DNA of 58,754 nt, the filler included, from Basidioascus undulatus (Eukaryota): assembly GCA_000826855.1 (NCBI GenBank). It is 4 parts of 4 records of this genome, joined end to end, with 100 filler letters (N's around TTAATTAATTAA, not from the genome) between each part and the next. Parts side by side here need not be neighbours in the genome. Positions count along the whole stretch, not along the records: positions 44,153 to 58,754 come from JTLS01000713.1; 3 more parts are not named here. One strand, written 5' to 3'. Below are positions 55,970 to 57,245 of the stretch, piece by piece. The notes under the pieces are model-generated. The model made no database searches. It was not told the origin of the DNA and saw nothing but the letters and a program-made list of their open reading frames with translations. The position numbers and the translations under genes were made by a program. Within the stretch, counting starts at the first letter, position 1. Every line of letters begins with the position of its first letter.

Positions 55970-57245
55970 CTAGGCGATAGCAGTGAGGCTGAGCAGAATC
56001 GACACAGCAGCGTCGGTGAGGAAGAGGACGTTCCCGGAGCTGGATGAGGTGCAAATTTCATGAGCCATTATAAGGGGATGCCTGCATGAGGGACAGTTGC
56101 GAGAGACGTACGAGTCACGGCACACGCCGTCGGGGCCTTCGATGAAGACGCCTTTGAGGATGTCGATCAGGATGGAACTGTCGAGCACGATGCCGGTGCT
56201 GTGGGGATATAGATGATCAATATGGATTTCCACATCCTGAAGCTGAGATTATGTAGGCTTACATCCTGTCGCACCACTCGCCAGCGGCATTCTGGACGTA
56301 GTGCTGTTGCAGGATGGCGAGGATGACGTTGATGTCAATGAGGGTGGAAGACCTGGGAGGTAAAACCGTCAAAGATCAGTAAAAATAGTTCAATCTTGAA
56401 TGGGTGAACTGGATGTACGGGTTGCAGAAAGTGGGGCAGCACCCCGCAGGCGGGCCGTGGAGGAGCGCGAGGACGACGTCGATGCCCACGATAAGGCCGG
56501 AACTGCCAAAGCCCAGAGGGGTTTCAGCTAGGAAAGTTTGGAGATCTGCAGGATGATGATAACGTACACCTCATCCCGGAATAATCCATCGGACAGGTAG
56601 GTGTAATGCCCGTTGATGATGGTGGCGAAGATCTCGGCCCTGAGGATGTTGCCGAAGCTGCGAAAAAGTAGCATTAGCCTCTGACGTGTGTATAAGTGAG
56701 GAAAAACCACTCCTCACATGTCCGTGAATTCTCCGTTTTCGTTAGGGAAGTAGCGCAGATTGATAATGTTGACGAAGAGCTCGAGGTCGAAGATGTGCCC
56801 GGAGCTGTGCGGGCGGTGAAAGCGTCAGTGGGACGGAACAGGGTGAAGGATGGGGGTACTATCCAGCGCACGCGATGCTGCAGTACTCCGCGTCGTTGCA
56901 GTAAGTGAAGTACCACGAGAGGAGGTTTACAAGGAGGTCGACATTGAGGAGGTTCCCGGTGCTGTTCGAGACGATGTCAGAACAACACGGAAGAAAGCCG
57001 GGGCGGGAGGGAAGGAGAACGCACGGGTCAGTGTAAACTCCCGGCGCAGTCTGGGTGAAGTACCCCGGGAAGAGCGTAACGACCGAATCGATGTCGACGA
57101 GGGAGAGGCCCCGCTTGGCCTGGTAGACTTGCGGCGTGCCGAAGGTCGTGCCCAGCGAGGTCGAGGTCCCGTCGTAGGTGGGGGCGGCGGTCGAGACGGC
57201 GACGAGAGAGGCGAGCGCAGAGAGGAGGACGGCGGTGGAGCGCAT
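55970..57245 (-). CDS. Secreted exon-modular hydrophobic repeat protein, paralog B (8 exons, intact)
   Basis: Signal peptide MRSTAVLLSALASLVAVSTA-AP, with KR before the first repeat. Exons 57245-57025, 56961-56872, 56804-56718, 56657-56568, 56502-56419, 56352-56263, 56198-56112 and 56039-55970 splice into one open frame. Confidence 0.88.

Follow-up and report, generated by a model that had tools for sequence, protein, structure and literature searches.

Tandem genes for an acidic, very hydrophobic and probably secreted protein of seven repeats in Basidioascus undulatus

The locus considered here raises the question of what kind of protein is assembled when a gene consists almost entirely of small exons that each encode one copy of the same unit. 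It occupies positions 55970–57245, on the minus strand, of a stretch of Basidioascus undulatus DNA that we refer to as the window, which is 58,754 nucleotides (nt) long, filler included, and joins four parts of four records of GenBank assembly GCA_000826855.1; the locus, here called gene A, lies in the part taken from JTLS01000713.1. A preliminary description made from the sequence had regarded it as an unrecognised secreted protein family with one repeat per exon. The explanation we favor, and to which we assign as a whole a probability of about 0.4, is that gene A and a second copy close to it, gene B, arose by tandem duplication, that both truly encode proteins, and that they define a family of secreted repeat proteins restricted to one lineage. 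So far they constitute an orphan family with two copies in this window, whose seven-repeat product is acidic, very hydrophobic and probably secreted.

Gene A and its tandem paralog

Gene A extends from an ATG at 57245 to a stop codon at 55972–55970 and contains eight exons and seven introns (Table 1). The exons were placed by locating the peptide units, and an automatic splice search using a strict donor pattern recovered intron 1 only. When joined by coordinates the exons yield an uninterrupted 819-nt frame of 272 residues plus stop, within which the eight peptide units originally read from the sequence recur letter for letter, and the same splicing bears out the account of internal exons of 84, 87 or 90 nt with every intron in phase 2. 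The seven introns (63, 67, 60, 65, 66, 64 and 72 nt from first to last) all have GT and AG termini and split a codon after its second base, with the GT starting two bases past the last full codon and the AG ending one base before the next full codon; the 66–78 nt between adjacent peptide units correspond to the intron and six exon nucleotides at its edges. By eye, a branch-site-like motif can be seen 15–35 nt before the acceptor in at least five of the seven. We also note a 140-codon open frame at 56847–57269 on the plus strand, antisense to exons 1 and 2, which is GC-rich and encodes an Arg/Gly/Glu-rich product; most likely this frame reflects the high GC content at third codon positions (GC3) of the sense frame and is not a gene.

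The preliminary description had suggested building a hidden Markov model of the repeat and searching with it, and a profile made from gene A's seven units alone revealed gene B at 50637–49362 on the same strand, 5.3 kb from gene A. It retrieved seven units between 50820 and 49372, at scores of 13.3–40.5 bits, and elsewhere in the six-frame open stretches of the window the best score was 9.5 bits and all others were 3.5 bits or lower. A third copy near 45.7 kb was considered on the strength of a weak profile score (about 9.5–9.7 bits) and was rejected, as the gene at that position has RNA-recognition motifs. Gene B has seven phase-2 introns of 59–73 nt, exactly homologous in position to those of gene A.

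Comparison of the two copies offers a means of evaluating the splice model. The proteins are identical at 165 of 282 aligned columns, with nonsynonymous (dN) and synonymous (dS) divergences of 0.27 and 0.55, and the dN/dS ratio of 0.49 falls to 0.39 over the repeat part. Same-numbered internal exons share 68–87% nucleotide identity, as against 57 ± 4% for the 30 non-matching exon pairs, with exon 5 the best conserved (87%). The same-numbered introns are 56–59% identical (53 ± 4% for 42 non-matching intron pairs), and the flanks, taken as 300 nt on each side, are at background (55% upstream and 50% downstream). GC3 is 0.85 in both genes and the GC content of the introns is 0.49–0.50, with GC3 ranging from 0.53 to 0.86 in the other long frames of the window; all 14 splice-site pairs of the two genes are intact. 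The confinement of conservation to the exons, together with the dN/dS ratio and GC3, supports the splice model without recourse to RNA data, and we consider it very probable, judging from these sequence features, that the gene model and the repeat family are real. The two-copy comparison illustrates that gene models can be validated in this way without RNA. As a separate observation, both paralogs have a TATA-like A/T-rich motif, recognized by eye, about 110–125 nt upstream of the ATG on the minus strand (57365–57371 and approximately 50745–50752), and their promoters are otherwise unconserved, upstream identity being 55%.

Exon 2 of gene B is peculiar. Read to the donor homologous to that of gene A it is 88 nt long (90 nt in gene A) and runs into an in-frame stop; a weak donor 10 nt upstream preserves the frame and gives the 78-nt exon of our model. 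The plausible alternatives are a frameshift, reflecting either a pseudogene or an assembly error, use of the upstream donor, or in-frame skipping of the exon as permitted by the symmetric phases.

Table 1. Coordinates of genes A and B and their parts within the window.
Feature	Position	Strand	Basis or remark
Gene A coding region, ATG to stop	55970..57245	-	819-nt open frame; GC3 0.85 versus intron GC 0.49
Gene A exon 1, 221 nt: signal peptide (probable), Ser/Thr-rich linker, Lys-Arg, unit 1	57025..57245	-	Unit 1 profile score 41.5 bits
Gene A probable signal peptide, residues 1-20	57186..57245	-	By eye
Gene A single Lys-Arg, residues 44-45	57111..57116	-	Lacking from the aligned part of gene B
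Gene A exon 2, 90 nt, unit 2	56872..56961	-	Spliced frame and profile
Gene A exon 3, 87 nt, unit 3	56718..56804	-	Spliced frame and profile
Gene A exon 4, 90 nt, unit 4	56568..56657	-	Spliced frame and profile
Gene A exon 5, 84 nt, unit 5 (divergent; contains three Cys; latter half of pattern replaced)	56419..56502	-	Spliced frame
Gene A exon 6, 90 nt, unit 6	56263..56352	-	Spliced frame and profile
Gene A exon 7, 87 nt, unit 7	56112..56198	-	Spliced frame and profile
Gene A exon 8, 70 nt with stop: hydrophobic C-terminal tail, no recognisable unit	55970..56039	-	No profile match
Gene B, 8 exons, 7 phase-2 introns	49362..50637	-	Gene A profile; modelled by coordinates
Gene B exon 1, 248 nt: signal peptide (probable), acidic linker without Lys-Arg, unit 1	50390..50637	-	Coordinate model
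Gene B exon 2 in the present model, 78 nt, spliced at weak upstream donor	50253..50330	-	Coordinate model
Gene B exon 2 defect	50243..50262	-	In-frame stop if read on to the counterpart of the gene A donor
Gene B exon 3, 87 nt	50093..50179	-	Coordinate model
Gene B exon 4, 90 nt	49940..50029	-	Coordinate model
Gene B exon 5, 84 nt	49789..49872	-	87% nucleotide identity with gene A exon 5
Gene B exon 6, 90 nt	49635..49724	-	Coordinate model
Gene B exon 7, 87 nt	49481..49567	-	Coordinate model
Gene B exon 8, 58 nt with stop, shorter C-terminal tail	49362..49419	-	Coordinate model

The repeat array and the predicted fold of its unit

Each of exons 1 to 7 ends with one unit of 28–30 residues, so that the introns lie at unit boundaries. 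To score the units independently of themselves, a profile was built without a given unit position in both genes, and the omitted units were compared with 1704 background frames of the window. Eleven of the 14 units outscore the best of the background frames under this regime; units 1, 2, 4 and 6 of gene A do so with 19–26 bits against background bests of 7.5–11.6 bits. Those falling below the background best when left out are unit 5 of both genes and unit 7 of gene A, with gene A unit 5 reaching 4.6 bits as compared to a background best of 5.7 bits. In unit 5 the pattern is retained over its first half, and a Pro- and Cys-rich stretch takes the place of the second. The peptide encoded by exon 8 is not recognized as a unit by the profile in either of the two genes, and the array is therefore best described as seven units and a tail rather than the approximately 7.5 copies first proposed, of which the seven complete units stand and the eighth half unit does not.

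The columns of the 14 aligned units define a pattern with a small residue at position 1 and Gly at position 2, greasy residues at positions 4, 5, 7, 9–11, 13 and 14, Asp or Glu at positions 6 and 8, Gly at position 16, an aromatic residue at position 18, Gly at position 24 (11 of 12 units), either Cys or an aromatic residue at position 26, and Asp or Asn at position 28. The units are divergent (14–35% identity to unit 2), and each unit of gene A is far nearer to the same-numbered unit of gene B than to any other unit. Tandem Repeats Finder detects no tandem array at the DNA level in A or B, and mean nucleotide identity among the internal exons of gene A is 56%, equal to that of unrelated exon pairs. 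The closeness of same-numbered units and the lack of a DNA-level repeat indicate that the array is old, that it predates the gene duplication, and that the units are individually constrained.

The presence of one unit in each symmetric phase-2 exon fits growth of the gene by exon duplication, in that the internal exons of gene A are of 84, 87 or 90 nt with one unit each, and its seven phase-2 introns recur at the same positions in gene B. The proposal that the gene grew in this manner thus agrees with the exon structure, but its corollary that any exon can be skipped in frame fares less well, because individual constraint on the units argues against free in-frame skipping as the normal mode. 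Many animal extracellular proteins have grown by duplication of symmetric exons that encode one repeat each, typically in phase 1-1. Gene A resembles these in that every internal exon is a multiple of three, carries one unit and is bounded by introns of a single phase, such that growth or shrinkage in frame would be possible; it departs from them in that both genes use phase 2-2 rather than 1-1, and in that the unit is an unrecognised one and the host a fungus. A search of the literature on secreted fungal proteins with one repeat per exon found nothing relevant among the papers listed.

Structural models were made from contiguous pieces comprising one or two units. With the 14-unit alignment as input, AlphaFold2 predicts for one unit a helix at positions 7–17 and a hairpin with arms at positions 18–21 and 25–28, with a mean predicted local distance difference test score (pLDDT) of 69. 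A two-unit piece with a 21-residue linker of translated intron gives a short strand, a helix and a hairpin in both units (mean pLDDT 55). These models, weak as they are, suggest that the unit consists of a short strand, a helix and a beta-hairpin, which agrees with the residue pattern. A Foldseek search of the one-unit model against the PDB gave no match, the query being small and of low confidence. We see roughly even odds that the seven units stack as a repeat domain, an arrangement extrapolated from these pieces.

Relatives, composition and candidate functions

The family was called unrecognised at the outset, and searches of Pfam (with pieces of the protein), 1.84 billion protein representatives, PDB sequences and the ESM Atlas have left it so. 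Eight exon-derived peptides and frames, including a 128-residue two-unit frame, matched no Pfam family at E-values up to 10, the spliced protein not having been scanned whole. A word-indexed protein search with exon 1, which covered longer proteins only, scored none of 763 candidates. The seven-unit profile gave four matches at E-values up to 0.001 among 1,835,955,588 protein representatives, and all four were rejected as spurious: they are partial (profile positions 9–28) and are repeated 5–13 times in unrelated tandem-repeat proteins, two of which carry Pfam collagen repeats. Against PDB sequences the profile gave nothing below an E-value of 3.3, where two disintegrins matched over nine residues and were rejected; the ESM Atlas gave nothing usable. 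A metagenome scan with the unit 5 pair returned four loci with matches of 11–16 residues, none of which holds the repeat as judged by the 14-unit profile.

The heme A synthase (COX15) gene of the window serves as a control for these searches. It retrieves 1962 proteins at E-values up to 1e-20, and the named COX15 matches among the 120 listed are nearly all from Basidiomycota, at only 33–49% identity. Basidiomycete proteomes are thus well represented in the collection, but a close relative of this fungus is lacking from it, so that sampling explains part of the failure to find homologs; an unsampled lineage may have the family in common. Orphan secreted proteins are common in fungi (PMC7105643), and an unplaced secreted family in a fungus is not surprising in itself. 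What sets this one somewhat apart is the clean build of one unit per exon in which every intron is of phase 2, a grand average of hydropathy (GRAVY) of +0.45 and an isoelectric point (pI) of 4.1, a composition that is otherwise characteristic of hydrophobins or membrane proteins, and the complete lack of relatives in very large protein collections.

Both proteins begin with a probable signal peptide, as read by eye. In gene A there is a basic residue at position 2, an uncharged hydrophobic run at residues 3–24, and small residues ahead of Ala-Pro. The two proteins share their first four residues and an Ala-Ala-Pro, with an uncharged hydrophobic stretch in between in each, and the 19-residue hydropathy of the N-terminus peaks at 1.79 in A and 1.49 in B. 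On these sequence features we regard secretion as likely. The linker between signal peptide and unit 1 is not conserved between A and B. Gene A has a single Lys-Arg, directly before unit 1, which matches the dibasic site noted earlier after the signal peptide, but the aligned place in gene B has none, and with the site lacking from the paralog, cleavage of a pro-peptide is not a trait of the family. No dibasic site occurs between units in either gene, as had been noted for gene A.

The mature proteins, of about 27 kDa and 250 residues, are as acidic and as hydrophobic as had been supposed. Soluble proteins usually have a negative GRAVY, and those of A and B are +0.45 and +0.43; the residues Ile, Leu, Val, Phe, Met, Trp and Tyr make up 40% of A and 37.5% of B, and Lys and Arg together number eight in A and four in B, with a pI of 4.1 for each (4.11 for A). 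Such a composition, which is far greasier than in ordinary soluble proteins and highly acidic as well, suggests a structural protein outside the cell. There are seven Cys in A (residues 95, 101, 184, 185, 189, 218 and 247) and ten in B, with positions common to both in units 2, 5, 6 and 7.

We propose the following configuration, with the reservation that each of its steps is a prediction. The N-terminal signal peptide would direct the protein out of the cell. Each unit would form a short strand in which greasy and acidic residues alternate, then a helix that is mostly buried and ends at a glycine, and a tight beta-hairpin at an Asp/Asn-Gly turn, and the seven units would be placed side by side in one elongated repeat domain. 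The units' hydrophobic blocks would hold this domain together, probably along with a few disulfides in units 2 and 5–7. The protein would then be situated at the cell wall or at hydrophobic interfaces and contribute to coating, wettability or attachment, and its working form would be the whole folded repeat domain rather than peptides cut from it. The surface or interface role is drawn from composition with low certainty, and we hold it to be possible but doubtful; the analogy with hydrophobins or Ustilago repellents drawn in the preliminary description is a reasonable guess of the same standing, and the solenoid, surface activity or amyloid formation raised there are conjectures. That these proteins represent a new class of fungal interface proteins, a third way beside hydrophobins and repellents of rendering surfaces water-repellent or sticky, built exon by exon as a modular acidic greasy stack of strand, helix and hairpin in an unseen fold, is quite unlikely. 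Were the protein to prove a new repeat stack or to be surface-active, it would provide a new structural class for fungal surface biology, and possibly a material-forming protein.

Two groups of fungal surface proteins invite comparison. Hydrophobins are small, Cys-rich, surface-active proteins of fungi (PMC13514795), and proteins A and B are like them in being predicted to be secreted by a fungus and in being strongly hydrophobic, with the interface role an analogy only. They are unlike hydrophobins in having about 250 residues, seven tandem repeats, a strongly acidic composition and no Pfam match on the pieces scanned. The hydrophobin eight-Cys pattern was said to be missing; that pattern includes two adjacent pairs, and the seven Cys of A and ten of B, with one adjacent pair in each protein, uphold the statement. 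By size, repeats and Cys pattern, A and B are not hydrophobins. The second group comprises the repeat precursors processed by Kex2, including repellents, in which each repeat adjoins a Kex2 site and the peptides function once released (PMC9769878, PMC3133707); the Ustilago maydis repellents (Rep1) coat aerial hyphae (PMC3133707, PMC9769878). Repellents are basidiomycete secreted proteins made of tandem repeats, as A and B probably are, and their coating role is of the kind proposed here. Neither A nor B has repeats that are each flanked by a dibasic site, and we do not count them among these precursors; their units are divergent, and the protein probably works intact.

Several points weigh against the secreted repeat family as we have drawn it. 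The splice model derives entirely from genomic sequence, and a dN/dS ratio of 0.4–0.5 denotes moderate constraint only; gene B, one of the two copies, may be decaying given its exon 2 defect. The signal peptide and any anchoring were judged by eye. The one-unit and two-unit models are of low confidence, the latter including 21 residues of translated intron, the hydrophobic moment did not discriminate helix from strand for positions 4–16, and the stack is pure extrapolation. No relative was found outside the window, such that the function has no anchor.

Among the other explanations to consider, the one that survives best, although we think it unlikely, is that A and B are extracellular binding scaffolds or effector-like proteins that interact with a partner, with a variable ligand surface as in leucine-rich-repeat proteins and with duplication serving to diversify specificity. 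Ribonuclease-inhibitor-class leucine-rich repeats have units of 28–29 residues, and the 28–30 residues of our unit equal this length. Greasy residues at positions 4, 7, 9 and 14 and, at position 12, one that is small or polar can be superimposed on the leucine-rich-repeat core spacing and are compatible with a strand followed by a helix; in both cases the repeats would be stacked in one domain, the stack of A and B being a conjecture. A lineage-restricted, secreted, tandem-duplicated and moderately constrained family is also common among fungal small secreted proteins. However, no Pfam repeat family, leucine-rich repeats included, matches the exon peptides or the two-unit frame at E-values up to 10, and the position of the core motif that should be Asn is Ala in five, Thr in four and Asn in two of the 14 units. 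The would-be outward positions are greasy too, in the models a hairpin with a Gly turn and one aromatic residue per arm, and not a helix, makes up the latter part of the unit, and dN/dS is below 1 with no sign of diversifying selection over the whole length.

Somewhat less likely still is a protein tethered to the cell wall or membrane, in which the hydrophobic tail of gene A acts as a glycosylphosphatidylinositol (GPI) attachment signal or a C-terminal anchor and the repeat domain is displayed on the surface. This would be compatible, and would partly overlap, with the secreted repeat protein we favor. The last 19 residues of A are the most hydrophobic window of the protein (2.1) and are preceded by the small residues Ser-Ser-Gly, as might be expected of such a signal. 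The tail of B, on the other hand, is shorter, ends in polar residues and peaks at a hydropathy of 1.24, so the tail is not a conserved feature of the family, and the spacer before the tail of A is greasy instead of polar, with no Ser/Thr-rich stalk near the C-terminus.

We regard as improbable a third configuration, in which the stack would have a groove or tunnel along its length and carry a hydrophobic small molecule such as a lipid, sterol, pigment or pheromone. The GRAVY of +0.45 and the 40% of large hydrophobic residues exceed what the core of a simple repeat should need, and the protein is acidic and probably extracellular, but the proposal derives from composition, and neither Pfam (on pieces) nor PDB sequences reveal similarity to known lipid-binding families.

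It is very improbable that the locus is decaying or mis-modelled and its open frame fortuitous. The reliance on genomic sequence, the lack of a homolog elsewhere and the frame defect in exon 2 of gene B could be taken in this sense; they are countered by two copies with eight open exons each, by conservation confined to those exons, and by a dN/dS ratio below 0.5, a GC3 of 0.85 and intact splice-site pairs throughout (14 of 14). A precursor of bioactive or amyloid-forming peptides released by Kex2, as in the Ustilago repellents, would account for a signal peptide, tandem repeats and one Lys-Arg directly before unit 1 of gene A, but is close to being refuted by the sequence, in which no dibasic site separates the units of either gene, the Lys-Arg is missing from gene B, and the units are divergent (14–35% identity to unit 2) and not near-identical cores.

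Other features of the window

The 4.6 kb between the paralogs (51300–55900) contains long minus-strand open frames without a Pfam match, for example at 53618–54118 and 54683–54976, and it seems that at least one unrelated gene separates genes A and B. A Myb-like impression given by the frame at 53618–54118 was not confirmed by Pfam.

The COX15 gene used as a control lies at 37972–39345 on the plus strand (Pfam PF02628, E-value 2.5e-38), and because its best relatives are from Basidiomycota the source of the DNA is basidiomycete-like. A gene at approximately 45300–46886 on the minus strand encodes two RNA-recognition motifs (Pfam RRM_1) and, after them, a low-complexity tail rich in Gly, Met and Pro; the two motifs are in different frames, indicating an intron between them. 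A Ras guanine-nucleotide exchange factor with RasGEF_N and RasGEF domains and a GC3 of 0.86 is encoded at 28185–29396, also on the minus strand.

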